Source: an uncultured Actinomycetes bacterium (lineage in GTDB: Bacteria; Actinomycetota; UBA4738; HRBIN12). From it: a stretch of 64,000 nucleotides of DNA. How positions within the stretch are numbered: the stretch's first letter is position 1; the number at the start of each line of letters is the position of its first letter. The notes beneath the pieces are model-generated. The model searched no databases. It was not told where the DNA came from and saw only the letters and a program-made list of their open reading frames with translations. The stretch covers positions 402,474 through 466,473 of the forward strand of contig CAVQPR010000001.1 of the NCBI GenBank assembly GCA_963714865.1, written 5' to 3'. Both the position numbers and the translations under genes were made by a program. Positions 15,919 through 32,051 of this stretch are shown in pieces.

Positions 15919-15995
15919 GGTCGGGCCGGCCGGATTCGAACCGGCGACCTTCTGACCCCCAGTCAGACGCGCTAACCAAGCTGCGCCACGGCCCG
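15919..15995 (-). tRNA. tRNA-Pro (anticodon GGG)
   Basis: Full cloverleaf folded by hand: acceptor CGGGCCG/CGGCCCG, D-arm GCGC/GCGC, anticodon stem TCTGA/TCAGA with loop CTGGGGG, T-arm GCCGG-TTCGAAT-CCGGC, discriminator A. CCA is not encoded. Confidence 0.9.
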
Positions 15996-15996
15996 T
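15955..15996. repeat. attL core: left copy of a 42-nt direct repeat, lying inside the tRNA-Pro gene (its 5' 41 nt)
   Basis: Identical to 32010-32051, compared base by base. Confidence 0.85.
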
Positions 15997-16103
15997 TGAC
16001 CTGCGGTTATGCCCCTGCCACCGCTTGCACACCGACTTTACAGATGATAACCTGTCGGCGACTAACCAGGACAGGACAGCATCCGCAAGGGAGGGAGCTA
16101 GCG

Positions 16104-17087
16104 ATGGCAGAGACAAGAACCACGCTGCGAAGTGTACCGGAGCCGGACGCGCCGCAGGGCGACATCGAAGTCTGGGCCGCACGCTGGCGCAGGGAGCTAC
16201 GCGCCGACGGCAAGCAGGCCCGCACGATCACCGACTACGGGCGGACGCTGGACTACTTCGACGCCTGGCTCGCCGAGGAAGGTCGCTCCCGGTTCGTGGG
16301 CGATCTCACCCGCGCCGATGTCGAGGACTTCCGCGACCACTACCTCGACGGGACCAAGCCCGACGGCACCCCGTACTCCCGGGCCTCAGCGAAGGCGTAC
16401 ACGGCTTGCCTGCGGTCGTTCTTCCGCTGGCTGGCTGACGACCTCCCCGACCCGGACGGCATCCCCACCAACATCGCCGAGAAGGTCAAGCTGCCCATCG
16501 TCAAGCCCCAGGTGCAGGACGTGCCCACCGACGAGGACGTAGAGCGGGTGTTCAAGACCACCAAGGGGACGACGTTCGAGGATCTGCGGGACCGGGCCAT
16601 CCTCGGCTTCCTCATCACCACCGGCACCCGACTGAGCGGGGTCGCGGGGATCAAGCTGGAGGACGTCGACCTGGACGCCCACAACCCCCACTGCAAGATC
16701 ACGCTCAAGGGCGGGGCCGAGCATCGGGCGTACCTCAACCGCAAGGGACCACTCCCCCGCGACTTCGACCGCTACCTCGCTCGACGCGCCAAGCACCCGC
16801 ACGCCTCAAGCCCCTACCTGTGGATCGGCCGGCGGGGCAAGATGGGAACGTCGGGGATCTACCAGATGGTGCAGCGCCGAGCCGAGTCGGTCGGGGTCAA
16901 GATCACCGTCCACGACTTCCGCCGCTACGCCGCGTCGACGATGCTCAACCGAGGGGCGCGTCCCGACGACGTTCAGAACCTCCTCGGGTGGCAGGATCGG
17001 TCGATGCTGAACCACTACGTTGCCGCAACCGCGTCGGACCGGGCTGCCGAAGCTCTGACCCAGTTCGACCCTTCGATGCGGGAGTAG
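16104..17087 (+). CDS. int: tyrosine-type site-specific integrase
   Basis: C-terminal catalytic region (HDFRRYAASTML...LLGWQDRSMLNHY). AAGGGAGGG RBS. Immediately adjacent to the tRNA att site. Confidence 0.9.
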   Translation: MAETRTTLRSVPEPDAPQGDIEVWAARWRRELRADGKQARTITDYGRTLDYFDAWLAEEGRSRFVGDLTRADVEDFRDHYLDGTKPDGTPYSRASAKAYTACLRSFFRWLADDLPDPDGIPTNIAEKVKLPIVKPQVQDVPTDEDVERVFKTTKGTTFEDLRDRAILGFLITTGTRLSGVAGIKLEDVDLDAHNPHCKITLKGGAEHRAYLNRKGPLPRDFDRYLARRAKHPHASSPYLWIGRRGKMGTSGIYQMVQRRAESVGVKITVHDFRRYAASTMLNRGARPDDVQNLLGWQDRSMLNHYVAATASDRAAEALTQFDPSMRE

Positions 17088-17272
17088 CGAACCCTCAACC
17101 CGCCGATCCTCTAGTTGAGGTGGACCCCCCAAACTTTCTCGGCGACCACAAGATGTAGTGGGTCACGGCGACTTTCCACAGGAGATGCGTCCACACCATC
17201 CAGTAGAATCCGATTCGTACACCGCTTGCCGTCAACATCGGGACAGGCCATGGAGCGGTCCCGGTGAGGTGG

Positions 17273-17383
17273 TCCCAGGGGGACCCGGCGGAAGCAGCCG
17301 CAGGCAGGTCGCGGGTTAGGAACCGGCTTCCAGGGGGAGCCGAGACCGGCGGCTAGTTCGGAGCCCAGGGGGCACCGAGGCGG
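17273..17383. repeat. three imperfect direct repeats, YCCAGGGGGMNCCGRG..GGCGG
   Basis: Copies at 17273-17291, 17328-17352 and 17363-17383, between int and the excisionase-like gene. Confidence 0.6.
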
Positions 17384-17437
17384 TCCGTTGAGAGTCAGCT
17401 CTGCTAGCCGCTCTCCGGATCTCCTTAGGAGGTCTCC

Positions 17438-17653
17438 ATGAGTGGTTCCGTTGCGGAGCCTGGGGTCATCACCGACCCGGACCGGCCCCGACACGATGCC
17501 GCGTACGTCGGCGAGTTGTTCGGCGTACCGACGAGGCGGGTCTATGACTGGGCAGCCAGCGGCCAGATCGGCTGCTATCGACTCGGCCACCGGACGCTGA
17601 GGTTCAGCGACCGCCAGCTTGCAGAGTTCGCCCGCGCGCGGAAGGTGGCCTAG
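17438..17653 (+). CDS. xis: excisionase/AlpA-like helix-turn-helix DNA-binding protein
   Basis: 71 aa, with an HTH (TRRVYDWAASGQIGCYRLGHRTLRF). Strong RBS (TTAGGAGG). Lies next to int. Confidence 0.7.
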   Translation: MSGSVAEPGVITDPDRPRHDAAYVGELFGVPTRRVYDWAASGQIGCYRLGHRTLRFSDRQLAEFARARKVA

Positions 17654-17899
17654 ATGGCCGCTGCGGTGAACCTGACCCCCGAGCAGCTATCGACGCGAGG
17701 GCGGGCCGGGGCCTACGCCCTGCACGCGCAGCGCGATCCGAGGGAAACGACGGCTGCCGCACGCGCTGCCTTCCGCCGTCGATTCGAACCCGACGACCCC
17801 GACCTGTCCGACGCTGAACGCGAGCGGCGTACCGATGCCGCGCTGAAGGCGTACATGACCGGCCTGAGTCTCAAGGCTTCCAAGGCGAGGTCGGCATGA
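17654..17899 (+). CDS. hypothetical protein
   Basis: The ATG follows the xis stop directly. 81 aa. Confidence 0.45.
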   Translation: MAAAVNLTPEQLSTRGRAGAYALHAQRDPRETTAAARAAFRRRFEPDDPDLSDAERERRTDAALKAYMTGLSLKASKARSA

Positions 17900-18043
17900 C
17901 AACCGCCCCGCACACCGTCCACCCATCGAACGGGATAGCACGCGCATGCGTGGCTTTCGCCGGGAGCCCGTTCGATTCAAAGACGAGAGCCGCCCGCAAC
18001 ACCCCTGGCGGACGGCTCCCTAGCGCATTGGAAAGGCGCGATC

Positions 18044-18460
18044 ATGAATCCAGCCAAGGATACCGCACCCGGCACATCCACTAGCGGCGACTTCCCCGAG
18101 TCGTGGCGTGGCTTCAACGCTGACGGCGATCTGTTCGTCGGCACCGTTGACGGCTACTCCGAGGGTCCAGGCAAGTTCGGCCCCGTCCCGATCCTGCAAG
18201 CGTCCGACACTGAGGGCAAGGCGTGGTCGATCTGGCTGTTCTCGTCGATCCTGCGCGAGAAGGTCGGCAAGGCTGCACCGAAACCCGGCGAGAAGATCGT
18301 CGTCACCTACCTGGGTGAGGCGACCTCGCAGGCCAGCGGCAACACCTACAAGCGGTGGGCCGTCGAGATGCCGGAGCGGGATGCGACCCTGCCCGACTTC
18401 AGCGAGTGGGCATTGCAGAACCCCGACGAGGGCAAGCCCGACTGGGGTGAGGGGTCGTGA
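18044..18460 (+). CDS. hypothetical protein
   Basis: 138 aa with a non-repetitive composition. Confidence 0.55.
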   Translation: MNPAKDTAPGTSTSGDFPESWRGFNADGDLFVGTVDGYSEGPGKFGPVPILQASDTEGKAWSIWLFSSILREKVGKAAPKPGEKIVVTYLGEATSQASGNTYKRWAVEMPERDATLPDFSEWALQNPDEGKPDWGEGS

Positions 18461-18912
18461 CGCTGCTCCGCGAACCTCGCCACGATCCCCGGCTCGCCCG
18501 TGAGCCGGAGCTAGAGGCCGTCCACACCCTGCGCCGGCTGGCTCGCCGCATCGTCGAGGGTGCCCAGGATGGAGTCATCCCTCCCTCTGGACCCGATGGG
18601 TGGCCCCTGCGCCTGGTCAAGCTCGCCGAGATGATCCGCAAGGAGCCCTCCCCCATCCGCCAGTGGGCCGAACACGCGCTGGCACGCGAGGCCGAGCCAC
18701 TGTTCCGCGACCCCGACGCCGGCCAGCCCATCGCCCCATCGAGGGCGTACCGCGACCCGCTGCGGCAGATGATCCGCAAGGGGTTGGCAGCCTGCCCCGA
18801 GTGCAAGCGACCCCTCCCCTCCGATGCGGAGTGGGAACACTGGGCGATGCTCGACAGCCTGCAAGCGCGCCGGCGGGACGTTCGCAAGGGGGCCGTCGAT
18901 GGTCGCCTATGA
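18457..18912 (+). CDS. hypothetical protein
   Basis: GTG start overlapping the upstream stop. Contains a CPECKRP motif. Confidence 0.5.
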   Translation: MTLLREPRHDPRLAREPELEAVHTLRRLARRIVEGAQDGVIPPSGPDGWPLRLVKLAEMIRKEPSPIRQWAEHALAREAEPLFRDPDAGQPIAPSRAYRDPLRQMIRKGLAACPECKRPLPSDAEWEHWAMLDSLQARRRDVRKGAVDGRL

Positions 18913-20269
18913 GGAAGCCGAGCGGGTGTTAGGGCTCGTGTCCGAACCGGAGGTAGCGGCCGCGACAAGCCGCGAGTCCACGGCCCGTGACAAGTATTGG
19001 TACGCCGATCGGTTCCAACCTCCGCTGCTCGGGAGGGCTGCCGAGGCCCGGGTGCGACTCCGACTCGGCCCCGACGGACATCTGTGGCGTTACTCCCACG
19101 GCGTCTACCTCCCCGACGGCTCCGAGTGGTTGGCCGAGTTCGTCCGGGGAGAGTTGGGCGACGAGTTCCGCCGGCATCGACTCGGCGAGGTCGAAGCGTG
19201 GTGCAAGGCGAAGCACTCTGACCGGATCTCCATCGACCCCTCCCCCGATTGCGTCAACGTCAGGAACGGGTTGCTGTATCCGTTCGGCGACTCGCCCGAG
19301 CTGGAGCCGCATGACCCCGAGGTCGTGAGCCTCGCCCAGATAGATGCGGCGTGGGAACCCGAGGCCGACTGCCCCAACATCCTGCGTTTCCTGATCCAGT
19401 CATTCCCCGATCAGACGAACGAGGTCGTCGCCTTCTTGATGGAGTGGGTCGGGTACTGCCTGGTCCCGTCCCAGCGACTCAAGAAGGCCCTGATGCTCTG
19501 CGGGCCGTCGAACACCGGCAAGTCGGTCCTGTTGGCGGTCATCGAGCGATTGCTGGGGTCGGTCAACGTGAGCAACAAGACGTTGCAGACGATCTCGGAT
19601 AACCGCTTCGCGGCGGCAGGGCTGTACGGCAAGCTCGCCAACATCTGCGCCGACCTGGACGCAAAGACGCTCAAGCAGACCGGCATGTTCAAGGCGATCA
19701 CGGGGGGTGTTGACTCCATCGACGCCGAGCGCAAGTACGGCGACTCGTTCTCGTTCGTGCCGTATAGCCGCCTGATGTTCTCGGCCAACAATCCCCCCGG
19801 CACGCCTGACCAGACGACCGCGTACTACGGTCGGTGGCTACTGTTGCCGATGGCGCAGGTTCGCACACAAGCCGACCAAGATCCAGGGTTGATCGACCGT
19901 CTGACGACCGATGCGGAGATGTCGGGCCTGCTGCGCCACGGCGTCAACGGGATGCGGCGACTGATGGATCGGGGCCACTTCGATGAACCCCCGCTGATGA
20001 CGAAAGCCGGGACCGACTACCGGGCCAAGACCGATACCGTCGTCGGCTACGTCGAGGACCGATGCGAGTTCGACCCCGACGCGCGAACCCGAACCTCTGC
20101 GCTCTATTCCGACTACAAGACGTGGTGCGAGGAGGTCGGCAAGCACCACTTGAGTGAGGGCAACTTCCGAGCGCAACTAGACGACACCTACGAGCTAGCG
20201 GACCTGCATCCGAAGTCGGCGGGATACCCAACGTGGTTCGGGATCAGACCGGCGTACCGCGACCCATAA
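18899..20269 (+). CDS. phage/plasmid primase, P4 family (D5-like NTPase C-terminal domain)
   Basis: Walker A motif LCGPSNTGKS, plus the D5_N-like and primase C-terminal architecture. Start overlaps the upstream gene. Confidence 0.85.
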   Translation: MVAYEEAERVLGLVSEPEVAAATSRESTARDKYWYADRFQPPLLGRAAEARVRLRLGPDGHLWRYSHGVYLPDGSEWLAEFVRGELGDEFRRHRLGEVEAWCKAKHSDRISIDPSPDCVNVRNGLLYPFGDSPELEPHDPEVVSLAQIDAAWEPEADCPNILRFLIQSFPDQTNEVVAFLMEWVGYCLVPSQRLKKALMLCGPSNTGKSVLLAVIERLLGSVNVSNKTLQTISDNRFAAAGLYGKLANICADLDAKTLKQTGMFKAITGGVDSIDAERKYGDSFSFVPYSRLMFSANNPPGTPDQTTAYYGRWLLLPMAQVRTQADQDPGLIDRLTTDAEMSGLLRHGVNGMRRLMDRGHFDEPPLMTKAGTDYRAKTDTVVGYVEDRCEFDPDARTRTSALYSDYKTWCEEVGKHHLSEGNFRAQLDDTYELADLHPKSAGYPTWFGIRPAYRDP

Positions 20270-20322
20270 GCAAGGGTGTAGAATCCGCGACCGGACCCCT
20301 GGGGGTGATCTCCTTTCACGAG

Positions 20323-20729
20323 GATGTATCAGCCAAGCCCCCGGGGGTTCTTTCTACCCCCACCCCATAAGCACGACCCCTCGCGTGACCCCCACCCCAT
20401 AAGCAAGTGCCGGCGATCCGGGGGGGTCCCTTGTGCTTCGGCGACACCCCCACCGGGGGCCTATCCCAGTGTCCGCGCCCATTAGAGTCGCAGCCGACGG
20501 TTATACGCACTGATAGCAAACCCGGCCACCGAACATAATGGGATGAGATACCCCCTACCCCTCGCGTGATCCCCTACGCGCGGAGGTATTCAGTGTCTAT
20601 CTTCGCAGGTCAGACCCCCTATGGCAGTCATCCCCCGTTACGATCTCGTGACGAGATCCCTTGAGAATCTTCCGCGAAAGGCTTTACTTCCATGCCTATA
20701 TGTCCGATACTTTCCTTGGCTGATACATC
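20323..20729. repeat. noncoding repeat module of about 400 bp, bounded by 15-bp perfect inverted repeats (GATGTATCAGCCAAG)
   Basis: Inverted repeats at 20323-20337 and 20715-20729. Inside are two copies of CCCCCACCCCATAAGCA (20357-20373 and 20389-20405), two copies of CCCCTCGCGTGA, and an ATAAGCAAG motif that recurs at 20262 and 22479. Confidence 0.65.
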
Positions 20730-20747
20730 GAGTGAAAGGAGTCAGCC

Positions 20748-20945
20748 ATGCGGACAGTAGAGATTCCTTGGTATTGCGCTAACGCGGAAGATCCATCCGC
20801 GCTAGAGCAGATCGAATCGGGTTGGGACGATTGCCCCGGCTGCGGCGGGTTGGCGTGCGTTCTGGAGTCCAACCCGCTTGACGAGTACCTCGCGCAATGC
20901 CCGAACCCGGGATGCGAGCTGCGCTATGTGGTCGTGATCCCATGA
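20748..20945 (+). CDS. small zinc-ribbon-like protein
   Basis: Strong RBS (AAAGGAG). Cysteine pairs CPGCGG...CPNPGC. Confidence 0.55.
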   Translation: MRTVEIPWYCANAEDPSALEQIESGWDDCPGCGGLACVLESNPLDEYLAQCPNPGCELRYVVVIP

Positions 20946-21193
20946 CCGCCATGACGCGCCAACACTTCACGTTCATCGCCGACGTGCTGAGCGAGTCTTA
21001 CCCGGTCGGCGGATACCCCAGCGGGCCCGACGACGACGCTATGCGGCGAGCCTATTGGGAATGGCTCGTGCGCTACTTCGGCGAACGGCTGCGCGAAACG
21101 AATCCGGGTTTCAATCCGGAACGGTTCGCCGACGCATGCCGGCGGGTTATCGAGATCGACGAGACATCCAGCGCGAACTACGGGGAGGTCTGA
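20942..21193 (+). CDS. hypothetical protein
   Basis: ATGA overlap with the upstream gene. 83 aa. Confidence 0.5.
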   Translation: MTAMTRQHFTFIADVLSESYPVGGYPSGPDDDAMRRAYWEWLVRYFGERLRETNPGFNPERFADACRRVIEIDETSSANYGEV

Positions 21194-21195
21194 CC

Positions 21196-21681
21196 ATGAC
21201 ACTCGACCATGACGTCCTATTCGATATCGAGACCTACGCTGACCGTAGCGGCACCCCCTACCCCACGATCCAGCTAACGGCCGGCACCTATGGGGATGAC
21301 CGCTACCGCGCCGTCAAACGGCTGGAGCGCGACGGTAGGGTCCGCATCGTTCACGACCGCTGGGGATGGTCCTATGTCTCGACGCTCCGCGCGTCGATCA
21401 GCATCGGGCGCGAGGTTCACGGGTTGCCGCACGAGGTACAGGGTTCGGCCGACCACGCGCTGCGATGGGAAACGGGGGAACGCGAGCAACACTGCGCCTA
21501 CCTCGAGAACACCTATGCGGACGGATACCCGGGATACCTCGAGCGGTACCTCGCGGGGATCTCGAGCCGCGCACGGTGCGACAACGCGCGGAGGTCCGAC
21601 GGCTGTATCTACTGCGACGGCCGACCGCACGATAGGCGCGCGTCACACTTCGCGCGCACGGCACGGGAGGTGGCAGCATGA
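21196..21681 (+). CDS. hypothetical protein
   Basis: GGGGAGG RBS. 161 aa. C-terminal Cys/His cluster (CDNARRSDGCIYCDGRPHD). Confidence 0.55.
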   Translation: MTLDHDVLFDIETYADRSGTPYPTIQLTAGTYGDDRYRAVKRLERDGRVRIVHDRWGWSYVSTLRASISIGREVHGLPHEVQGSADHALRWETGEREQHCAYLENTYADGYPGYLERYLAGISSRARCDNARRSDGCIYCDGRPHDRRASHFARTAREVAA

Positions 21682-21992
21682 CCGTTGACCTGACCACGCC
21701 GACGTTCGAAACGATCAGCGAAACGCGACTGCCGTTCAAGGACGGCAAAGAGATAGTCGTCGCGCTGCGGCGCTCGCCCAACGGCCATGCTGCGGTCGAT
21801 GTACGCGAGCACGTGCTGGCATCGGATGCGCCCGTGATCGTGGGCAAGGGTAAGTCTCGACGGGTCCGCTCAGACTTCACGGGTCCGACTCGATGCGGAT
21901 TCTGGATGCCGAACCCGTCAACCCTGCTGGATCTGGCCGACGCTATCGCACGCTACGCGCTGGAGCTGGAGACCCTGCAAACGACGGATTGA
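21678..21992 (+). CDS. hypothetical protein
   Basis: Start overlaps the upstream stop. 104 aa. Confidence 0.5.
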   Translation: MTVDLTTPTFETISETRLPFKDGKEIVVALRRSPNGHAAVDVREHVLASDAPVIVGKGKSRRVRSDFTGPTRCGFWMPNPSTLLDLADAIARYALELETLQTTD

Positions 21993-22166
21993 CTGCACTG
22001 AGCGCGCGGCACGCTGGCCCCTCGACGCTACCGCGAGGTCGGGGGGTCTCGTGCGCCCGAGGGGGGAACCCGACGCGCCGGCCACCGATCTGGCCCCCGA
22101 AACACTCCCCCAACCGGATAGGGCCACTGACCTGGGCATATGCGAAAGTCGGGGGAGTCACGGGAC

Positions 22167-22210
22167 CCAAAAACCGTTAGATGAAAGTCAGTTTCATTCT
22201 AGGGTTTTTG
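22167..22210. terminator. bidirectional intrinsic-terminator-like hairpin
   Basis: CCAAAAACC...ATGAAA-gtcag-TTTCAT...GGTTTTTG. Stem-loop with U-runs on both strands, located between convergent gene sets. Confidence 0.5.
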
Positions 22211-22899
22211 ACTCCCCAAGACTCCCCAAGGTCCCCCAACCAGATCACTACCGCTGATGGCGGATGCTAAGCATTACTCCCCGCACGGGCGAACCTCCGC
22301 CCTCGCATGGCCGCATGGCACGCGAGACACCCCCACGATCCCAGCTACCGCACGCTCAGCTACAGTCTGCTAACCAGTTGTTAGCCTCTCTACCCCGCGC
22401 GACCACGACGCGCTGACCTGCACGTTTGTCCGTCGTCGGTCGCGCTACTCCGCGTGGTTAGTGACTGTACGCATGGGATAAGCAAGTAGGTGAGCGTGGG
22501 GTGCGGGCCAACTATCGGTACCGTCCGCCGGCGGGCGGGGGTGTGTCCCTGTCTCGCGATCATGACGGGGGCGAGGGGGGTGCCCCGACCGGGGTCCATT
22601 ACGTGGGGGCACTGTGATGTATATGTGAACCGTGAAACATTACCCCGCAGTGTTTCTCACCGATGAGCTTACCAGCCTCCCGCTGCGAACTACAGAAGTG
22701 TCATTCTCCACGTTTCTAAGCCCTCGCCGAAGGTTGACTAGGTACTTCGTACTAGTCCGGGGCGACCCACGGCTTAGAGGGGCTGAGAACGCCGAAAGCG
22801 GGGTGCCTAGCCGCCAGGACGGCTGGAACGGATCCGTTGGGTCGGGTCTCCTGGCGGCAAGCCGAAGCCACCGGAGCGACCCTTGGTAGTCGAGATGGC

Positions 22900-23205
22900 T
22901 CATGGGGCCACGGTTGAGCGGGTGCAGCGATTGAACGCCGCATCCCAGGTTCCGCCGTTCGTGACGCAGGCGAGGTATAGGTCCTCTCGGATCTCGATGA
23001 AGCCAGGCGTCTGGGTCTGTGAGGCTTCCTCTGGTCGTGAGTCGGCCCACAGGATGCCGCCCACCACTGCAATGATGACCGCTAGGGCCACGACGACCGA
23101 GACCCACTGCCGCGTCTCGTCCTTCTTCGACTTGTCGCGTGCCTGCGTCTTTCGAAGCTCGGCAATCTCGCGTTCGAGTCGTTCGATCCGGTCATCGTCG
23201 GGCAT
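22900..23205 (-). CDS. hypothetical membrane-anchored coiled-coil protein
   Basis: Coiled coil (IERLEREIAELRK) followed by a TM helix (WVSVVVALAVIIAVVGGILW). Confidence 0.5.
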   Translation of the reverse strand: MPDDDRIERLEREIAELRKTQARDKSKKDETRQWVSVVVALAVIIAVVGGILWADSRPEEASQTQTPGFIEIREDLYLACVTNGGTWDAAFNRCTRSTVAP

Positions 23206-23410
23206 GGTTCTCAGGGTCCTATGCGGTGCTGGTCGGGTCAAGGCTCCGACTGCATCAGGTCCAACTCGAACGCCATGCGTAGATCGTCGTCGGCCTCTAG
23301 ATCGATCAGGATCTCAGCCATGCCCGGATTCCGTTCGGCCAACTCCGAGATGATGCGGGCACGCTCGGCCGATGAGGCGAGAAGGTAGGTCACCAGATTT
23401 CCGCGCAAGC

Positions 23411-23770
23411 TCATCGGGGTTCCAGTTCTTGCTCCAGTTCCTTCGCCCGCTCCAGGAGGCCGTCAAGTTCCACAATCTGAGGGTTCCACGCCTCTAGGTC
23501 CTCAGCCATCTCCCTCTCAGCATTCTGCAGGGCCTCTTCGTTGAACGAAGTCTCGCTGAGAGCCTTCTGCATCTCTACATCCCTCACTGCATCGAAGACC
23601 CCTGCGGCATGAAGCTCGACAAGGAGCTGACCGACGCGCCGCTGGATCGCGTCCGCCAAGTCGAAGTTCGGAAGGACCGGGCGCTGTTGCCTATGCGCCC
23701 GGGTGATGTATTCGATCTCGGGCCTGTACTCCTTGTGAAGCTCCGCACCGTCGTGGGTCTGCTGCTCCAT
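23411..23770 (-). CDS. hypothetical protein
   Basis: Strong RBS (GGGGGAAGGAAGG) before the start at MEQQTHDG. Confidence 0.5.
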   Translation of the reverse strand: MEQQTHDGAELHKEYRPEIEYITRAHRQQRPVLPNFDLADAIQRRVGQLLVELHAAGVFDAVRDVEMQKALSETSFNEEALQNAEREMAEDLEAWNPQIVELDGLLERAKELEQELEPR

Positions 23771-24143: not shown

Positions 24144-24383
24144 CGCTGCCTCCTCCCTAGGCGTCCACATCCTCCACATCGTCGATGACGTGTGGAAACT
24201 CACCCAAGCACCCGGACCCGCATCAAGGGAACTAGACAGCGAGGAAGATGGCCCGAAAGCACCATTGACGCGCAGCGCGGCTAGGACTGGCGGCGTTCGA
24301 TGCGGCGCAGCCTCGACGAAAGACTCTGCGGCGTGATGCCCAACCCTTGGTCAGTCATGGTCCCAAATCAGCAAGCGGGGCGA

Positions 24384-25581
24384 TCAACAAGAGGAGAGTC
24401 GGTCCCTCGAGTCCCGGCGGCAGGCATCAGCTCCGGAACCCCCCTTTGCAGCGTCATTCCCCTTCTTGCCGTCCGCAGAATCGACGGCGTCATTCCCGGA
24501 ACCCGCCACAAGCAAATCCGCGCCCGGTCCACCCACGAGGATGTCGGATCCGGCACCCCCATACATCTTGTCGTCGCCCGGACCGCCAAGAAGGATGTCG
24601 TGTCCGCCAAGCCCACGGATTGTGTCCTTCCCTCCAAGTCCGCAGATGAAGTCGTCCCCGCTCGTTCCTATGAGCAAGTCTGGCCCTCCGGTTCCGACAA
24701 CGGTGCACGTCGGTTGCCAGCTAGGGAACAGCCATCCGCCCAATGATGGTGAGAGCAGGAGACGATCGTTGCTCCCATCAGCGTCCATGACGCGAAGGCC
24801 GCCACTGCCTTTGTAGATGATCTGCGTTCCATCCGGCGACCAGTCCGGGGACCCCGATACTGTTGGTCTCGTCAAACACCAGCTCGGTAGGGTTCGATCC
24901 GTCCGCATCCATCGTCACGATTGCGGACCCGCTCGGTCCGATCACCTTGTAGAGGATGTGGAATCCGTCAGGGGACCAGTGCGGTGACACTTCCTCCACC
25001 GATGGCGTCTGTGTCAGATTGACGGGCACACCCCCAGCTGCCGGCATGACATAGATGTCCTTGGACGTCCCGTAGGTGACATAGGCGATGGCCGAACCGT
25101 CCGGTGAATACGTCGGGGAGCCCTCGTGTTCCGGGGTATTCGTTAGCCGTTTGACATGCCGCCCGTTGAAGTCCATCGAGTACAGGTCAGCGGGCGAACC
25201 TGAATCAGCTGCTCGGCCAAAGACGATGAACGATCCGTCTGGAGACCAACTTGGACTTGTGCCCCCGGGAGGAGCGATCCGTTTGACTGCCTTGAACTCT
25301 GAGGACATTACGTAGACGCCTGAGCTCTGCGAGAAGGCGATTCGACCACCATCAGGCGACCACTCAAGCCGGGTCATGTAGACGTCTTCCACGTCGTGAA
25401 GTCGTTGGTTCGACCCGTTAGCGTTCGCAGTCCATACCCCAACCCCAGGAGCCCAGGCTATCTTCCCGTTCGCTCCTGGGAAGGCGGCACCGGCTGGGAC
25501 GCTCTGCGCCACGATCGGAACGCACACGGTCACCATCAAGAGCAGTCTCATCAGCATCGCACTGGCCGATCTTGTTGACAT
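24384..25581 (-). pseudogene. secreted TolB-like PD40 beta-propeller protein with C-terminal RTX-type GGxGxD repeats, carrying a 1-nt frameshift near 24850-24880
   Basis: Signal peptide. Repeated SP(D/H)WSPDG PD40 motifs continue across a shift from the frame of ORF 24778..25734 to that of ORF 24384..24908. The frameshift may be a sequencing artefact. Confidence 0.6.
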
Positions 25582-25664
25582 GGCCTTGTTGTCGGCACGA
25601 GCAACGAGGCACTTGAGCAGGCGCAAGGTGCCTGTGCCAGGCCTCGGGCGGACACGCTGCTCAG

Positions 25665-26180
25665 TTATCCAAGCGCTTGGGCTATGTCCAAGAAGAACCG
25701 CTCTCGACAGCCCGGCAGGTTCCTCACGACACATGAAGGGTGGTACGTCACCCAGACCTCGATCGCAGGGTCTAGGTAGCGGGAGCGGTGCGGGTTGTCA
25801 GCGCGTAGATCTCGAATGACAGTCCTCACATCGAGAACGGCGCGCACCGCGACCTCCCCGAGAGCGATTACCTTCGCGGGTCGACGCTGTTGAATCTCGG
25901 TGACCAAGCGACCATGGCAAGCGTCGATCTCAGCTTGCTTGGGCTTGGCCTGTTCGGGATGGCAGAGCACGACATTCGTGATGTATGCGGACGACCGTTC
26001 GAAACGGGCGTTCTTCAGGGCCTCGTCCAGGATCCCTCCCGATGGTCCGACGAACGGCTTTCCAAGACCGACCTCGGTCTCCCCGGGGGCCCAGCCCACA
26101 ATCACGACATCCGCGTCGTCGGGGCCATCACTGGGGACGAACTCACGATCGCCAAGGGGGCAGTCGAGACAGCGGGCCAA
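25665..26180 (-). CDS. uracil-DNA glycosylase, family 4
   Basis: GWAPGETE (the GE[AP]PG motif), PFVGPSG and a C-terminal HPS motif. Start assigned to an in-frame TTG (uncertain) immediately after the upstream stop. Confidence 0.7.
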   Translation of the reverse strand: MARCLDCPLGDREFVPSDGPDDADVVIVGWAPGETEVGLGKPFVGPSGGILDEALKNARFERSSAYITNVVLCHPEQAKPKQAEIDACHGRLVTEIQQRRPAKVIALGEVAVRAVLDVRTVIRDLRADNPHRSRYLDPAIEVWVTYHPSCVVRNLPGCRERFFLDIAQALG

Positions 26181-26187
26181 AGGTGCC

Positions 26188-26577
26188 TCAGATTCCGCCA
26201 GACGAGGCCTCTGCGGGGACGAACAGGCACCCGCAGAACCGGCACTTCCGGGCGGCGAAGCGGATCTCCTCGGCGCAGTCAGGGCAGACCCTGTTCTCAG
26301 GTGGAGGAGCGATGTGCTGCCTAGGCAGTTGTGGTTCGACCGCATTTTGGGGTGTGCCGCCGGCACGCGGATGTCCCGCCAATCGATAGACGACCGCGCC
26401 AAAGACTCCAGTCAGCAGGATCAAGGCCACCCAAGGGAGCTTGCTTCCCGACCGAAAGCTCGTTCCCTCCGGCACCCGAAGACATACGATGAGCGTTTCG
26501 ATGGTGAAGAACGCGGCAATCCCCACGAGTAGCAGGACATTCACCGCAAGGATCTGATCTGTGGGGCTGCCGTTCAT
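26188..26577 (-). CDS. membrane protein with a C-terminal zinc ribbon
   Basis: Two TM helices, then CPDCAEEIRFAARKCRFCGC. Confidence 0.55.
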   Translation of the reverse strand: MNGSPTDQILAVNVLLLVGIAAFFTIETLIVCLRVPEGTSFRSGSKLPWVALILLTGVFGAVVYRLAGHPRAGGTPQNAVEPQLPRQHIAPPPENRVCPDCAEEIRFAARKCRFCGCLFVPAEASSGGI

Positions 26578-26748
26578 TGGGCTTTCATCGGCGTTGGCAC
26601 TCGGCGGCTTGAACCATTTGCGTCGCCCGTCCCGTGGTGCTCCTCGACAAGCGGCCCGCCGGGTCATCGAAGTTGGCCTCCCGTGACCGACTGCGCAGGC
26701 TGGGCATCCAGCGCCCCGTTTGACCTTCGAACGGCGATGCCCTTCCTA

Positions 26749-27123
26749 CTAATGAAGCACCACGTAGGTCACGAAAAAGCTGGAGCAGCTCTCCATCTTG
26801 GGTGAAGAGGCTGGAATGGCCGCCGCCACGTTCTCGAGAATCTCAATCAAGCTTTCGCTCTGACCGGCCTTCTCCAACTCTTGCTGCGACACCACGGCGA
26901 AGTCCCCGAGTCGGGTCTCCGAATCGCCGCAGCTGAGGGAGAGCTGGTCCAAGGCGCTCTGGAAGTCATCCACGACTGGGTCATCGGGCCAGACGTAGCT
27001 TCCAGCATCCACCGCCGCGAGCTTGCAGGCTGCCGTTGCGCAGGCACTTGACCCGGTTCCGCCGCCCGAAGAGCACGAACCGACAAGGGCAGATACGACG
27101 ACTAGGGTGGCTATTCGTCTCAT
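26749..27123 (-). CDS. lipoprotein
   Basis: Signal peptide with a lipobox (LVGSC). Confidence 0.6.
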   Translation of the reverse strand: MRRIATLVVVSALVGSCSSGGGTGSSACATAACKLAAVDAGSYVWPDDPVVDDFQSALDQLSLSCGDSETRLGDFAVVSQQELEKAGQSESLIEILENVAAAIPASSPKMESCSSFFVTYVVLH

Positions 27124-27298
27124 GGTTCCTAGTGAACCGTACGCTGAATCCAGCCTGCCCGCGAGGCCCACCCCGGGTTCCCCCAAGGAGAGGTAACGAT
27201 CCAGGAACGGTCAACCCATGATGTAGGCGGCGCCGCCGGGCGAGCCCACCCGGGACACCTCGCTTGAGTGAGATAGCCCTCATGCCGATACCTCATCG

Positions 27299-28979
27299 AT
27301 GACCCGGACAGCAGCGGCACTTGGGGGCATGATCCTAGTCTTGACGCTCGTCGTCCCTGTGACCGCAACCGCTGAGGCCCCCGCGTGCACTCCTGGGACC
27401 TGGGAAGTTCAAGAGACACCCGCAAGCAGCATGGACGTCCGCGACATAGCAGCCATCGGCCCGTCGAATGTCTGGGCCATCGGGTCGCTCGGCCCAACAC
27501 CGGCTGCTCTCCACTACGACGGCTCGGCCTGGACACAGATTCCAGTGCCCGCACCAGCAGGATCATCGAGGGTCGTTCTGAATGGGGTTGGAGGTACCTT
27601 GACATCCGACGCTTGGGCCGTTGGGACGGCCGTCTGGCCGGATGGAAGCCTCACCGAGGTACTCGAACACTGGGACGGGGCAACGTGGAGTGTGGTGCCG
27701 CCACCGACGCCCTTGCAGCCGTCAGACCGGAGACAGCTCAGTGACTTGACGGTCATATCGTCCTCCGACGCTGGGCTGTCGGATGGTCGCGGCTTTCAGA
27801 CCCCGACTCCCCTAGTGGATTCGTCGGGCGAACTCTCACGATGCACTGGGACGGATCGTCGTGGACGGAAGTGCCGAGCCCGAACCATCCGAACAGCAAC
27901 TACGACCTGCTACTCACGGTCTCCGCCTCGTCTTCAGACAACGTATGGGCACGTGGTCAGTGGGACGATGAATCCGCCTCAACTTGGGGAACTCCATCAT
28001 CCGCTGGGACGGAGCGAGGTGGCGTCTCGCCAAGAACCCGTTCGGAGACTTCCCGACTCCGGGCCCTGCAACGGCCTTCTGGAACATCGCTGCTCTATCT
28101 CCGACAGATGTGTGGCTCGCTGGCTACGAGGTGAAGGGTGGCAACCTTCTCCCCGCTGTCCAGCACTGGGATGGCTCATCCTGGCAGGAGATCGATGTTC
28201 ATGCGGGCGGACAGCTGATCGATATCACGGCATCCTCAGCTCAAGACATCTGGATGCTGGGGACGAACGACATCAGCACGTTCTCGTTCGGCCAGCACTG
28301 GGATGGTTCGCAAGCCTCGGCGTTTCCCAATGCCCAAGGACGTCAAGTGCTGTTCTGGTTCGGACACGCCCTCACGTCACTTCCCTCAGGTGATGTGTGG
28401 GCGGCGGGCAATTCGAGTTCCGATTCCAAGGTCTACATCCAGCACCTCTGCCCTATCCCCGTAGGAGATGCCTCGGCGAGCCTCGGCAACCGAGCCGCCT
28501 CCTCCGCGATCACCAAGGCCCGGCTGGGCCACGCCGTCGCCTGGAAGTTCCTTCGCAAGAATCGCAATCGACACGAGGTCAAGGACACGACAGGGATGAA
28601 GCTGTTCGATTCCGGTCTCAAGGCTCCCGGTGCTTCCTTCACCTGGCGCTTCCGGTGGTCGGGGACATACACCTGGAAAGACGCGGTGACCGGGCGTCGT
28701 GGCACTATCCGAGTCCCGATCGTCCTGAGCAAGACGCGGGGGCCGAAGACAACGGTGACGTGGTCAAGGTCCGATGCGCATGGCAAGTACGTCTTCGATG
28801 TGCAGGTCAAGGCACGAGGAACGGGCAAGTTCGTCATCTGGAAGAAGGGCGTCACGGTGCGCAAGGCGGTCTTCTCCCCGGATCGAGCGGGCCGCTACTA
28901 CTTCAGATCGCGGGTCAGGAAGCTCGGCGAGCATGCGCACTCGGGATGGTCTCCGGCAAGAGTGTTCACTAGGTGGTAG
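27299..28979 (+). pseudogene. secreted repeat protein (HWDGxxW...WAVG beta-propeller-like repeats) with at least 2 frameshifts (about 27770 and about 27990)
   Basis: Signal peptide. At least six HWDG(S/A)xW repeats run through three reading frames (track ORFs 27299..28393, 27841..28134 and 27984..28979). The frameshifts may be sequencing artefacts. Confidence 0.6.
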
Positions 28980-29151
28980 CACCGTGAGGGGCGCTACTCG
29001 ACCTTAGCCTTCTGCGGCCCGTTCCTCCGAAGCGGTGTCGTACTTGGGGACGCTGCTTGCGCACCACTCGCCCGGGGGGATAAAGGATCGGATGGTCGTC
29101 CTGCGTACTGCCCCCCAGGAGCGAGCGGCGGACGGTCGCGCCGATGAGGAG

Positions 29152-29867
29152 TCAGCGACCTCCTCTGCGGTCCACGGTTCGCCGGAGGGTGACGAAATGC
29201 CGCTGGCCCGCAGAAGTATGGCGATATCTTCGAAGCGACGCGCCGTGTTCGCGTTCCTGCTCGATCACGTCGGCCACGGTAGCGACCGCCACTAGACAGC
29301 GCGCCTTTGCGAACCACATCGGGTGGCACATCTCGACGAACGTCTGCGAGGGCCTGATCCCCCGCCATCGTGGCTGCGATGTCGGCAGCGAGGAGCTGGG
29401 GCGGCATCTGTTCGACGAGGGCGTCGAGTATCGCGGCGTCATCCCCACCCCACACCGACAGGTACATGCCATCGGGGCCTATCTCGTCAAGGGCGTGTAT
29501 CTCACCGATCCAGTGGGGGTCGCGGTTGCGCCACGACCGATGCGTTCCCGAGGGCGTGCCGCTGTTCTTTGCAGCCCTCGTCAGCGTCGGGCGGTGTCCC
29601 TGGTCGATGAGCCACTGATAGGCCCGGGTGAGCTTGGGCTTGCCCTCAAGCGGCGGGGGCCAGCCGTGGTTGTCCACCCCCATGACGGCTGGGTCGAACC
29701 ACGCCCCCGATGCCCCGAGCGCGCCGGCACAATCCATAGATCCAATCTCCGGGCGCATGCAGCACCGCGCTGTCGGGCACCTTCTCGCCGATGATCTTGG
29801 CGACGATCTTGCGGAACTCAGGATCGTCACTTCGCATGGCGGATACGTCGGGCCACCACCGCGTCAT
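29152..29867 (-). pseudogene. hypothetical protein split across three frames
   Basis: Protein-like segments (MTRWWPDVSAMRSDDPEFRKIVAKIIGEK... and ...WFDPAVMGVDNHGWPP...IGEIHALDEIGPDGMYLSVWGGDD...) are joined only by frameshifts. No family assignment. Confidence 0.35.
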
Positions 29868-30054
29868 ACGTCCACCTCGTCAGCGATGCGGAGCATGTTG
29901 TCGGCGTGGTTGAGGATGTCCACCAGGGTTTCGACCTGATCGGCGGTCAGTCCCCCTCGGAGAGAACTTCCACGGTGCGGGCCTTCACCTCGTGCGCGAG
30001 CCCGCGATAACCCGCGAAGTCGATGTTGGCCCGCAACCGGGCGTCCAGCGTCAT
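29864..30054 (-). pseudogene. small protein of about 63 aa, frameshifted at a G5 run
   Basis: MTLDARLRANIDFAGYRGLAHEVKARTVEVLSEG continues as GLTADQVETLVDILNHADNMLRIADEVDV after a 1-nt shift at GAGGGGGAC. Confidence 0.4.
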
Positions 30055-30087
30055 GCGCCGAGCCTGTCCTTCTGAGCGGCCACCCAG

Positions 30088-30905
30088 TCATTGGCGAACG
30101 GGGTCGAGATCCCCGACTCCGAGGCTTGACGGATGACCGACTGCTCGACTTCGGTGAACGGCAGCCCGCATCTCGGCCATGAACGCCGCAGAGGGCGGCT
30201 CCTGAGCCTTGGCTCGCATCTCCTCGATCTCATGGGGTGCCGCACCCTCAAGCCGCAGGTTCTCGGCGAGCCCCAGCCAGTTCTGCCGCCACTCGTCGGC
30301 AGCGCGTCGTTTCGTGCGAGCGTCGACCCACTGATTGACGATGGCGTCAGACAGCGAGTCGGAGCTGCGGGCCTTGGTCTCGGCTTGCAGGCGTGCAGCG
30401 CCCATGCGGGCCTGCTCCAACTCCGCTGACGCAGCCCTGTGGCGGGCGGTGCCGTCGGTGAGGGCCTTGAGCCCTTCTGCCAGCTCCTCCGCGTGGACCT
30501 GAGAGGCCAGCAGATCGGCCGCAAGCTCCTCGTCGGAGATGCCGGCGAACGGTGCCCGGGCCTCTGCGATCAGCAGCAGCGGCTTCGAGCTGGTCGGCCT
30601 CCCGCTGGGCGTCGAACTTCTCGCGGGCGTCGGTGGTGAGCTTGCCGGCCATCTGTTTCTCAGCCCGGGCAGCCCTCAACTCCTCGATGCGCTTGGTCGG
30701 CCTTGCGGGCCAGCGCGGCGTCGGTGTCGGTGGGCTTGCGCGTCGCCTTGGGCTTGCTGAGGGCGGTACGACGCTCCTCTAGCCGGGACTGTTTCTCAAG
30801 GAGCGCGTCGAACTCCTGCTCACTCCCATCGCCCGAGATGTTCTCGTCGATCTCGGCTTCGAGCTTGTCGATCTGTCGGGTGAGTCCTTCGTAGGTGTCG
30901 GCCAT
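30088..30905 (-). pseudogene. coiled-coil protein spread over three frames
   Basis: Charged heptad-rich segments (MADTYEGLTRQIDKLEAEIDEN..., ...RAARAEKQMAGKLTTDAREKFDAQREADQLEAAAADR..., ...ARLQAETKARSSDSLSDAIVNQWVDARTKRRAADEWRQNW...) are contiguous only if frameshifted. Confidence 0.4.
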
Positions 30906-31645
30906 CAGATATCGACCTTCTCCAACTGCGCCCGCGTCTTACCGGGGTTCATGGTCCCGACCTCACGGGCTCCGTAGACGAGGTTCCCGTTCGCATCGGT
31001 GGACCGCATCCCCACCAGCCGGGCCTCGACCTCGCGGCAGAACGTCCCGAACTTGTATCGCTTGAGGTCGGTCTGCGAACGGCACCCCCGGAACTCACAG
31101 AACGCCGCGATGCCGTGCGGGTACAGCGGGGAGACAAGCTCGGTCGGCAGGATGTAGCCCTTCGCGCGGGCCTTCTCCACACCCATGCCGGAGTTGGCGA
31201 CCATCTCCTGAATCACGTCAACCACATTGGGATGCGGTGTCCAGGTGACCTGCTCCTCCATCTTCTCCACGACGACTGAGCCGTCGGCGCGTGGTTCGGA
31301 GTAGATCGGCACCGGGGTGCGCTTCTCGACCTGCTGCACGTAGGGCTCGTGGTCGCAACTCGCGTACCAGTCGCGTTGCACGTTCTCGGCCCTCTGGCAT
31401 GCGTGACAGATCGGGCGAAGCATCGTGACGCCCTTGATCCCGACGCTGAGGTTCGGGGTCCGGCGCATGCCTTCCAAGATGGCGGGCTCACCGATGGCGG
31501 ACGGTGCCGCTGCTTCCTCGACGATGACTACGGGCTCGGTGAGGGGCTGCTTGGAAGTGCCGGCGTGGTACTTGCATAGCGGGCCACCGTCAGCGGCCTT
31601 GCCCTTGCACCGTTGGCCGTTCGTCTTACTGGCTGAACACTGCAT
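30905..31645 (-). CDS. hypothetical protein with an N-terminal Cys-rich (zinc-finger-like) segment
   Basis: 246 aa. MQCSASKTNGQRCKGKAADGGPLCKYHAG. Non-repetitive composition. Confidence 0.6.
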   Translation of the reverse strand: MQCSASKTNGQRCKGKAADGGPLCKYHAGTSKQPLTEPVVIVEEAAAPSAIGEPAILEGMRRTPNLSVGIKGVTMLRPICHACQRAENVQRDWYASCDHEPYVQQVEKRTPVPIYSEPRADGSVVVEKMEEQVTWTPHPNVVDVIQEMVANSGMGVEKARAKGYILPTELVSPLYPHGIAAFCEFRGCRSQTDLKRYKFGTFCREVEARLVGMRSTDANGNLVYGAREVGTMNPGKTRAQLEKVDI

Positions 31646-31680
31646 GGATCTGTCCCTTCTATTGACGTGCGATTGCCGTG

Positions 31681-31848
31681 CTAGCTGCCGTGGCGCTCTG
31701 CCTGCTTGGCCGCGTGGGCGAGCTGGTCGGCGTAGATCTCGGCCATCCGCTCGGCGGCTTGGCGCTTGCGAGCGTCCTCATCCTTCGATCTCTGGGCCGC
31801 GTGCTTCGCCCTGGCCTTGGCCTGGACCTCGGCTCCTTCGGTCGTCAT
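31681..31848 (-). CDS. small basic protein of 55 aa
   Basis: ATG preceded by GAAGGGGGAA. Lys/Arg-rich. Below the track's size cutoff. Coordinates are hand-derived and approximate. Confidence 0.4.
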   Translation of the reverse strand: MTTEGAEVQAKARAKHAAQRSKDEDARKRQAAERMAEIYADQLAHAAKQAERHGS

Positions 31849-31875
31849 CTGCTATTCCCCCTTCCGCTTGTGCGT

Positions 31876-31888
31876 TTGTGATTCACAA
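31876..31888. promoter_or_regulatory. perfect palindrome TTGTGA-T-TCACAA, a candidate operator
   Basis: Lies in a lower-GC segment between the small basic gene and attR. Confidence 0.4.
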
Positions 31889-32009
31889 GGGTACATGGTG
31901 GTGACGACACGCTCAGGAATGTGCTGTAACTACACCGTCTAAAACCTTGCACACCGGTAAGATTCGGTGCGGTGTAAGGCTAGGTAGGCACAGCGGTAGG
32001 GCCTAGCGA

Positions 32010-32051
32010 ACCCCCAGTCAGACGCGCTAACCAAGCTGCGCCACGGCCCGT
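32010..32051. repeat. attR: right copy of the 42-nt direct repeat (partial tRNA-Pro 5' half)
   Basis: Identical to 15955-15996. No T-arm or acceptor 3' half follows it. Confidence 0.85.

Follow-up and report, generated by a model that had tools for sequence, protein, structure and literature searches.

The 64,000-nt stretch of contig CAVQPR010000001.1 analysed here (the window), from an uncultured Actinomycetes bacterium, carries a 16-kb integrative element in a tRNA-Pro(GGG) gene. This gene (15919-15995, minus strand) is the sole tRNA gene predicted by ARAGORN in the window and scores 65.7 bits against the Rfam tRNA model. Rfam identifies no other RNA family between positions 15800 and 32200. 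A perfect 42-nt direct repeat is found at 15955-15996 (attL) and 32010-32051 (attR), and a repeat of this length and perfection at a spacing of 16 kb is far beyond chance. The segment between the repeats is 16,013 bp in length (15997-32009) and has a G+C content of 64.0%, compared to 68.2% for the rest of the window. The flanks consist of housekeeping genes that are all encoded on the minus strand and all read through intact: a MerR gene, an FHA protein gene, gcvH and pgsA on the left, and der, cmk and aroA on the right. An initial annotation of this DNA had described a 16-kb element bracketed by a perfect 42-nt repeat in tRNA-Pro(GGG) between conserved housekeeping neighbourhoods, and the ARAGORN and Rfam predictions, the repeat coordinates and the gene calls on both sides agree with that description.

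The GTDB representatives do not include the source species, and the best match to its Der protein (70% identity) is found in uncultured Actinomycetota metagenome-assembled genomes (MAGs), so that the empty site is seen in other species only. Look-ups of the Der and helicase proteins of the window by exact sequence returned no record. In eight of the 11 closest species (L004-L008, L010, L012 and L013, where L-numbers are labels of the compared contigs or loci), cmk, der, tRNA-Pro(GGG), pgsA and gcvH are contiguous. At these empty sites the tRNA gene is located 40-117 nt after der and approximately 10 nt before pgsA, and the tRNA-Pro sequence of the window is identical to the empty-site tRNAs, including those of L005 and L007. 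Because der, tRNA-Pro and pgsA are contiguous in eight related Actinomycetota species, the 16-kb segment is an insertion inside tRNA-Pro(GGG), between der and pgsA. The empty site that the initial annotation had proposed to look for therefore exists at the species level, not the strain level. The possibility, also raised there, that the repeat is part of a tandem tRNA duplication is rejected, as the second copy contains no more of the tRNA than its first 41 nt, with 1 nt in addition. In L011 (4258-4333), the tRNA-Pro(GGG) gene between der and pgsA is inverted relative to that of all other relatives.

Targeting of the tRNA 5' half

Read on the tRNA strand, the repeat is A followed by CGGGCCGTGGCGCAGCTTGGTTAGCGCGTCTGACTGGGGGT and runs from position -1 through the anticodon loop, and thus represents the tRNA 5' half. 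One end of the core, at ...CTGGGGGT, is in the anticodon loop, in line with the anticodon-loop sublocation. In the other direction, the identity block reaches position -1 on the 5' side and does not include the tRNA 3' end. Because the repeat runs from position -1 to the anticodon loop, the attachment site of the element carries the tRNA 5' half (reversed orientation) and not the usual 3' part, a use of the target that the initial annotation overlooked. In the usual type of integration, the identity block extends from the anticodon loop to the tRNA 3' end (Williams 2002 as cited in PMC6563490). Targeting of the 5'-distal part of a tRNA is documented as rare (PMC6563490), and the integrative elements with reversed target orientation include a few archaeal cases (Zhao & Williams 2002, J Bacteriol 184:859, as cited in PMC6563490). 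As in such elements, the att core here carries the 5'-distal part of the tRNA, such that both the 5' half and the upstream promoter need restoring after insertion. In contrast to them, the trait is here common to at least three related actinobacterial elements, which use two tRNAs and have a conserved junction.

The intact tRNA-Pro gene is recombinant, with a 3' part from the host and a 5' part supplied by the element, and the host 5' half has been displaced to attR, where it forms the second copy of the core. The intact gene at attL is preceded by element DNA. The DNA beyond the attR copy, on the der side, resembles the natural tRNA upstream region of the empty sites. This DNA includes a native -10-like sequence, TACAAT (32060-32065, minus strand), 9 nt upstream of the displaced 5' half and pointing into the right-arm operon of the element. 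TACACT is found at the equivalent place in the empty sites of L005 and L007. Since the host promoter would stay with the displaced 5' half at attR, the rebuilt tRNA would need an element-borne promoter, and the displaced host promoter would now face the right-arm operon.

The element-borne region between the tRNA 5' end and the integrase gene (15997-16103) has ACCTGCGG next to the tRNA and sequences with putative promoter roles in both directions. A CATAAC -10-like hexamer (16006-16011, minus strand) lies 10 nt upstream of the rebuilt tRNA, and a probable int promoter (TTGCAC-17-TAACCT) includes CTTGCACACCG at 16024-16034. The predicted attP junction of the element circle consists of ...GGGCCTAGCGA, ACCCCCAGTCAGACGCGCTAACCAAGCTGCGCCACGGCCCGT and TGACCTGCGGTTATGCC..., in that order, and the predicted empty attB consists of ...GACCTTCTG, the core and GGGGGCTGATTGTACCC.... 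A second exact copy of CTTGCACACCG is located in the same orientation at 31946-31956, 54 nt inside attR (the first is approximately 30 nt inside attL), and these are the only two exact copies in the 64 kb. The attL-side copy is conserved in an alignment with L253 and L009. CTTGCACACCG may be an arm-type site for the integrase or, alternatively, the -35 element of the int promoter.

Similar junctions are found in related elements. In the closest relative, L253/L254, the element is adjacent to a tRNA-Val(GAC) gene on the opposite strand, and the 5' end of this tRNA abuts the int-proximal end. L009 belongs to a MAG related to the host. In this contig (5156-7144), der is followed by a truncated, apparently frameshifted integrase gene related to that of the element (31-35% identity), a lone tRNA-Pro 5' half that adjoins it and then unrelated DNA. 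This pattern looks like that expected of successive, accreted or tandem insertions at the tRNA-Pro site. When aligned, the junctions of the window, L253 and L009 share ACCTGCGG at 2-10 nt from the tRNA as well as a TTGCAYACCG...GAYAA motif. This motif fits an int promoter in both the window and L253 (TTGCAC-17-TAAGAT in the latter). Because the closest relative (at tRNA-Val) and a second tRNA-Pro element share the junction together with conserved flanking sequence, the reversed orientation is, on this comparative evidence, a trait of the lineage.

Target use varies among the other relatives. L122, a more distant helicase-bearing element, has a 45-nt repeat, spaced 13.2 kb apart, that comprises the first 39 nt of a tRNA-Arg gene and 6 nt upstream of it. 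The ordinary 3' orientation is found in L118/L164 (tRNA-Trp, 15.2 kb) and L127/L128 (tRNA-Met, 8.2 kb). In L125 (4615-7421), a tRNA-Leu gene has integrase genes on both sides, which suggests that one tRNA serves as a target for elements on its 3' as well as its 5' side.

Integration and replication module

The first gene of the element (16104-17087, plus strand) encodes an inward-facing tyrosine integrase of 327 amino acids (aa). This protein has the conserved domain Phage_integrase (E-value: 2.7e-22) and SAM-like N-terminal domains, is similar to phrog_1 (E-value: 1.6e-41) and was correctly placed by the initial annotation inside the tRNA-proximal end. Inspection of the translation by eye gave R, K, HxxR, W and Y as candidates for the catalytic residues. 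No close relative of this integrase is found in IMG/VR. A second tyrosine recombinase gene in the window (approximately 43789-44508, minus strand), with a product 26-29% identical to the integrases of the element and of L128, probably encodes a housekeeping XerC/XerD protein.

A 71-aa helix-turn-helix (HTH) protein (17438-17653, plus strand) is a candidate excisionase or AlpA-like regulator. It shows similarity to HTH_17 (26.8 bits, cut-off 27), TIGR01764 (excise; 23 bits, cut-off 28.8) and phrog_66 (E-value: 1.3e-3), and an HTH_17 gene is found at the equivalent position in L164 and L255. A small HTH gene is thus found where the initial annotation had placed an AlpA/Xis-like one, but its HTH_17 and TIGR01764 scores are just below the curated cut-offs. 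Three conserved open reading frames (ORFs) follow on the plus strand. The 81-aa ORF (17654-17899) is 45% identical to the L253 gene in matching position and 40% identical to one of L085. The 138-aa ORF (18044-18460) is 51-53% identical to a 130-aa L253/L254 gene, again in matching position, and the 151-aa ORF (18457-18912) is 43% identical to a 149-aa gene of L253/L254. Neither of the latter two has a family match, and PDB sequence searches with both returned nothing meaningful. The start of the 151-aa ORF overlaps the stop of the 138-aa gene, such that the two are translationally coupled. Gene order in L253/L254 is the same as in the window element, including a minus-strand ORF after int, and the helicases that follow are 55% identical.

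The replication protein (456 aa; 18899-20269, plus strand; identical to P0001) is a superfamily 3 (SF3) initiator-helicase of the P4/D5 family, with D5_N, a DUF5906 P-loop (GPSNTGKS) and a Pox_D5 C-terminal domain. It scores 189 bits against TIGR01613 (phage/plasmid primase, P4 family, C-terminal domain; cut-off 108.7). Its only PDB sequence match is 7OLA, the PriRep5 protein of the Staphylococcus aureus pathogenicity island (SaPI) SaPI5 (residues 433-744, E-value: 2.5e-9), over the ATPase and C-terminal domains. PriRep5 is a self-loading initiator-helicase (PMC9371898). PHROG alignments of the 456-aa protein cover only the C-terminal helicase halves of phage primases of 770-1060 aa. No primase domain is found in this protein or in the neighbouring and upstream ORFs by Pfam, PHROGs and NCBIfam or by a PDB search with the 138- and 151-aa ORFs. 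The gene had been labelled a P4/D5-family primase, with a comparison to satellite proteins suggested as a check. The family assignment stands and the sole match of known structure is indeed a satellite protein, but only the C-terminal helicase part is present and the primase activity implied by the label is not supported. Among the relatives, L085 encodes a Prim-Pol N-terminus fused to the helicase, and a separate gene of L164 encodes 346 aa with weak similarity to DnaG.

Directly 3' of the helicase gene is a 478-nt region (20270-20747) that is probably the replication origin, as judged from its repeats, composition and position. It contains short direct repeats (CCCATAAGCA three times, ACCCCCACC three times and CCCCTCGCGTGAYCCCC twice), and every copy of these sequences in the 64-kb window falls here. 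Nowhere else in the element is the G+C content as low as in this region (59% overall, 42-50% locally). In SaPIs, the origin is located directly downstream of rep and has iterons around an AT-rich centre (PMC9371898). Repeats or palindromes are likewise found soon after the helicase gene in the relatives of the element. The description of this module as iteron-like in the initial annotation is fair, although the likeness is modest. A long inverted repeat surrounds the origin-like region (arms of 28 and 27 nt at 20310-20337 and 20715-20741), with 25 matched nt (10 and 15 perfect around a 2-3-nt bulge). The plus-strand RNA of this region has a folding z-score of -4.7. The right arm holds the Shine-Dalgarno sequence (GAAAGGAG) of the ORF at 20748-20945, and therefore the left arm is an anti-Shine-Dalgarno sequence approximately 400 nt upstream. 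The inverted repeat (20310-20741) could function in long-range translational masking, mark an origin boundary or delimit an invertible segment.

Actinophages, plasmids and many viral contigs encode P4-family helicases of this type with at most 35% identity, and the identity of matches in IMG/VR reaches 46%. The closer helicase relatives (38-55% identity) belong to small islands with the same int, HTH and helicase plan and variable cargo. This cargo includes a type I CRISPR-Cas locus with a 19-repeat array in L001 (6359-7746), McrBC and SIR2-STAND in L003 (5654-12647) and an EcoRI-type methylase with GmrSD in L164 (3803-6093). Because the relatives carry CRISPR-Cas, McrBC/SIR2 and GmrSD genes, the family also acts as a carrier of defence genes. 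P4-like elements carry defence systems as cargo as well. PADLOC identifies no defence system in the cargo of the window element.

Phage-related genes and affinities of the element

Searches of essentially every plausible ORF of the element with Pfam, PHROGs, NCBIfam and PADLOC gave no match to capsid, portal, terminase, tail, lysis, relaxase, type IV secretion or FtsK/SpoIIIE proteins, and the capsid, portal, terminase, tail and lysis genes that would identify a prophage are thus not found in it. In a six-frame scan for Walker A motifs, the sole P-loop in an NTPase-like position in a substantial ORF is that of the helicase. The other Walker A motifs are located 17 residues from the C-terminus of a 246-aa protein and in a 69-aa antisense ORF. 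Because no virion, packaging-ATPase or conjugation gene is detectable, the element is not self-transmissible by any recognised route. The earlier statement that structural and conjugation genes are absent holds to the extent that no such family is matched, but the gene at 30905-31645 is homologous to a phage head-module gene.

This gene (minus strand) encodes the 246-aa protein, which is rich in Cys and His. It has 23 metagenome homologues, some of which have a short N-terminal DUF5763 motif. In four phage-like contigs (L166, L169, L170 and L171), the gene for a member of this family is part of a long structural module, where it comes one position downstream of the gene for the major capsid protein. 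The major head protein of L166 was identified by phrog_544/267 and that of L171 as a Phage_capsid_4 gene, and L169 and L170 are from IMG/VR. When the structural proteins of L166 are compared with the element by tblastn, matches are found only at the 246-aa gene. An AlphaFold model of the 246-aa protein built from 23 sequences (predicted local distance difference test score, pLDDT: 83) has no fold match in the PDB, and an earlier low-confidence model had no match in BFVD. In L166 (1-6174) and L171 (1-6892), a giant protein of 2,400-2,600 aa with no Pfam match is encoded upstream of the head module.

Downstream of the 246-aa gene are the remains of a gene for a charged coiled-coil protein of approximately 320 aa (orf320; 30088-30905, minus strand), split over two frames. 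Residues 57-106 and 163-295 of a 318-aa protein of L085 correspond to 30917-30759 (frame -2) and 30564-30154 (frame -1), respectively, and residues 148-245 of a 322-aa protein of L168 correspond to 30564-30286. The homologue is intact in both L085 and L168. In L168, as in the window, the 246-aa gene is followed by orf320, and the helicase of L085 is 48% identical to that of the element. A head-module homologue and a scaffold-like coiled-coil protein, with no other virion genes, are what a capsid-hijacking satellite would be expected to carry. The first gene of this leftward right-arm operon is a 55-aa ORF (31681-31848, minus strand; G+C at third codon positions [GC3]: 0.88) for which no homologue was found. 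It was considered as a counterpart of the small gene that precedes the 246-aa homologue in phages and was rejected, as the two are not homologous.

The presence of one head-module homologue could also mean that the element is what is left of a full prophage after loss of its structural genes, and helicases of this family do occur in actinophages and in many viral contigs of 35-50 kb. Such an origin is very improbable. The closest relatives (L253, L255, L164, L001 and L003) have the same small int, HTH and helicase plan with no structural modules, no frame of the element shows remnants of capsid, portal, terminase or tail genes, and a mere 16 kb separates the two att ends, both of which are intact.

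The initial annotation compared the layout of the element to that of P4-like satellites and phage-inducible chromosomal islands (PICIs). Under the definitions in PMC10085698, two to three of the seven P4-like core components and two to three of the five PICI core components are present. The integrase qualifies as a P4-like component by its Phage_integrase domain. Psu, Delta, Sid and epsilon/Ash have no Pfam or PHROG match in any element ORF. The element shares with P4-like satellites an integrase, a TIGR01613 replication protein and integration at a tRNA gene, and its small HTH protein is a candidate AlpA-type regulator. It differs in that its alpha-like protein is without the primase half and in that its host is actinobacterial, whereas P4-like elements are essentially enterobacterial (PMC10085698). 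The PICI order of int, regulator and replicase module is found in the element (int, HTH, helicase and origin), with a regulator call that is below threshold. A small terminase subunit has no Pfam or PHROG match, and for capsid morphogenesis there is no Cpm/Ppi-type homologue, the 246-aa relative of head-module proteins and the coiled-coil orf320 being candidates only. The element resembles SaPIs and other PICIs in size (approximately 15 kb), site-specific integration, the order of int, HTH and initiator-helicase genes, the origin directly 3' of the helicase gene and the lack of virion genes. It differs from them in having no homologue of the small terminase or capsid-morphogenesis genes and no recognised primase, in its actinobacterial host, in its use of the tRNA 5' half and in the very low identity of its helicase to PriRep5. 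The resemblance in layout therefore holds, but membership in either group does not.

Actinomycete integrative and conjugative elements (AICEs) such as pSAM2, SLP1 and pMEA300 are 9-24 kb in size, integrate into tRNA genes (tRNA-Pro in the case of pSAM2 also), have int, xis and rep genes in this order and replicate autonomously after excision. The element has integration, excision and replication modules, an actinobacterial host and a size within this range. It has no Pfam match to the FtsK/SpoIIIE-domain Tra protein that defines AICEs. It differs from them further in the absence of Spd and Pif genes, in having an SF3 helicase instead of RepSA and in an identity block that is the 5' rather than the 3' part of the tRNA. 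The likeness in host, size (16 kb), target and gene order to pSAM2/pMEA-type AICEs suggests another explanation, namely that the element is mobilisable or a tra-less AICE derivative that excises, replicates and then relies for its movement on a conjugative element in the same cell, with its FtsK-like DNA translocase. P4-family helicases are also common on Streptomyces plasmids (317 of 456 plasmid matches). This explanation is nonetheless quite improbable: homologues of FtsK/SpoIIIE, Spd, Nudix/Pif and relaxase proteins were not found, the helicase P-loop is the only functional one, the single gene that has affinities elsewhere is related to a phage head module, and relatives with complete ends (L164, 15.2 kb, and L127/L128, 8.2 kb) have no tra genes in the parts examined. 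The element does not qualify as a P4-like satellite, a PICI or an AICE, and its membership in any named family cannot be demonstrated.

Tycheposons (Hackl et al., 10.1101/2020.12.28.424599) offer a further comparison. As in their definition, an inward-facing integrase gene lies beside a full-length tRNA gene with a partial tRNA at the other end, and a small replication module lies beside the integrase gene, together with cargo. Variable cargo, partial tRNA repeats and the signs of tandem accretion in L009 are additional points of likeness. The host belongs to another phylum, the cargo is decayed and the tRNA 5' half is used, which distinguish the element from tycheposons, and the likeness is to the architectural part of a definition that also includes a tycheposon-specific lineage of tyrosine recombinases. 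The element could nevertheless be a tycheposon-like carrier of cargo that has no dedicated helper and spreads by vesicles, generalised transduction or transformation, in which case the 246-aa gene would be incidental phage-derived cargo. The fit to the definition, the accretion at the same tRNA in L009 and the variable defence cargo of the relatives speak for this explanation, which is improbable overall. The cargo in the window is largely pseudogenised, and the 246-aa gene and orf320 recur as a pair in other elements, which suggests a backbone function and not chance cargo.

The interpretation preferred here, tentatively and with doubt slightly outweighing belief, is that the element (15997-32009 plus the duplicated 42-nt core) is a 16.0-kb site-specific island that is phage-satellite-like and helper-dependent, one that inserts, excises and replicates but does not transfer itself, and that is possibly partly defective in this copy. 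As such, it would work like a PICI or a tycheposon and join the satellite-like, helper-dependent integrative islands as a further member. The steps envisaged are as follows. The integrase, aided by the small HTH protein, would recombine the DNA in the anticodon-loop region and so excise a circle. The helicase would load itself and initiate replication at the repeats and G+C-poor DNA that directly follow its own gene, as SaPI Rep does, and this helicase replicon would borrow priming and polymerase functions from the host. While integrated, the element would supply a promoter for the rebuilt tRNA and the displaced host tRNA promoter would face the right-arm operon. Transfer would take place in the particles of a helper phage, with the 246-aa protein and its charged coiled-coil partner as the link. 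The copy in the window would be partly defective due to frameshifts in the coiled-coil partner gene and in two cargo genes.

Several observations count against this satellite-like interpretation. With no primase found, autonomous replication is not assured, and the excisionase identity of the 71-aa HTH protein depends on sub-threshold scores. No small terminase, no homologue of a capsid-size or scaffold protein and no cos or pac site was identified in the element, and no helper prophage is located within the 64-kb window. Neither the element nor its tRNA 5'-half core sequence has a match among the IMG/VR viral contigs, and the 246-aa protein has no tblastn match in cultured phage genomes. The link of this protein to a helper phage is circumstantial, being drawn from gene neighbourhood, and orf320, its candidate partner in hijacking, is itself frameshifted.

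To our knowledge, this uncultured Actinomycetota lineage has so far been without a characterised phage satellite or island of a satellite-like kind. Because only two to three core markers are present, standard satellite detectors would miss the element. A bolder extension of the satellite-like interpretation, speculative and more doubtful than not by a wide measure, is that the window element, L253/L254 and L009 represent an undescribed lineage of actinobacterial phage satellites. Its members would recombine with tRNA 5' halves, re-promote the tRNA from the conserved upstream region (ACCTGCGG ... TTGCAYACCG) and carry the 246-aa gene and orf320 as an operon behind the displaced host tRNA promoter, with uncultured phages of the L166/L169/L170/L171 type as helpers. 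If this is true, satellite morphogenesis genes would be driven by a host tRNA promoter for as long as the element is integrated.

An island with int, xis and rep genes in a tRNA gene is by itself a common kind of finding. The points of interest here are the lineage-wide reversed targeting of tRNA genes and the candidate link to helper phages. The element and its relatives provide a small, well-delimited model for tRNA expression under integrases that use the 5' half, where the element must carry the promoter. They also pose the questions of how a helicase-only P4-family replicon starts replication with no primase of its own and whether a widespread capsid-adjacent 246-aa protein serves as a handle for islands that exploit phages.

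Cargo and signs of decay

Three cargo genes can be recognised between the origin and the right arm. The first (24384-25734, minus strand) encodes a secreted PD40 beta-propeller and RTX-repeat protein (PD40 E-value: 7.6e-21, HemolysinCabind E-value: 2.5e-21) and is split by one frameshift near 24850, as seen when the three frames are compared. The second (25665-26402, minus strand) encodes a protein similar to family-4 uracil-DNA glycosylases (UDG E-value: 1.2e-27), with a TIGR00758 score of 116.5 bits that is below the cut-off of 125.3. The third (27299-28979, plus strand) encodes a secreted protein with a signal peptide and HWDGxxW repeats but no family match. The same comparison of frames shows this gene to be broken by two frameshifts, at approximately 27780 and 27980.

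At least three genes of the element are thus frameshifted: the PD40-RTX gene, the HWDGxxW-repeat gene (twice) and orf320. Because of these frameshifts, the copy in the window may be decaying or partly defective. Sequencing error is an unlikely cause; since int, the helicase gene and all flanking housekeeping genes are intact, pseudogenisation is the more likely one. The insertion had been called probably recent on account of its conserved flanks, a view that finds no support and is weakened by the frameshifts in three genes.

The element may even be an immobile relic that was once mobile, is now fixed and eroding and does no more than supply the tRNA 5' half and its promoter. This alternative is unlikely. 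Besides the frameshifted genes between intact housekeeping flanks, it would account for a stretch of approximately 900 nt (22001-22899) with no convincing ORF and for the truncated, frameshifted integrase gene of L009 at the same site. It fits less well with the state of the core. Intact reading frames are found for the integrase, the helicase and the four small core ORFs, which are conserved with L253 at 27-55% amino acid identity, and the frameshifts strike cargo and one accessory gene, not the genes for integration and replication. Both 42-nt cores are perfect as well, although the tRNA sequence is invariant among the relatives in any case.

The remainder of the middle of the element encodes small proteins, among them membrane proteins or lipoproteins. 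Four small ORFs on the plus strand (20748-21992; 65 aa and Cys-rich, approximately 83 aa, approximately 161 aa and 104 aa) and four on the minus strand (22900-24203; a 113-aa membrane protein, 58 aa, 169 aa and 124 aa) are predicted from their GC3 pattern and have no family match. The 58-aa minus-strand ORF is 67% identical over 42 aa to a sequence of L003. The stretch between these two groups (22001-22899) has no Rfam match and contains short tandem repeats at 22210-22230 and 22304-22319. L167 (1-8059), a contig with a member of the 246-aa family, also encodes secreted repeat proteins of the PD40/Tricorn and BNR/Sortilin-like types from intact genes. The PD40 protein of L167 and the product of the broken PD40 gene of the window share 31-32% identity, and the PD40-type secreted repeat protein is possibly a recurrent type of cargo.

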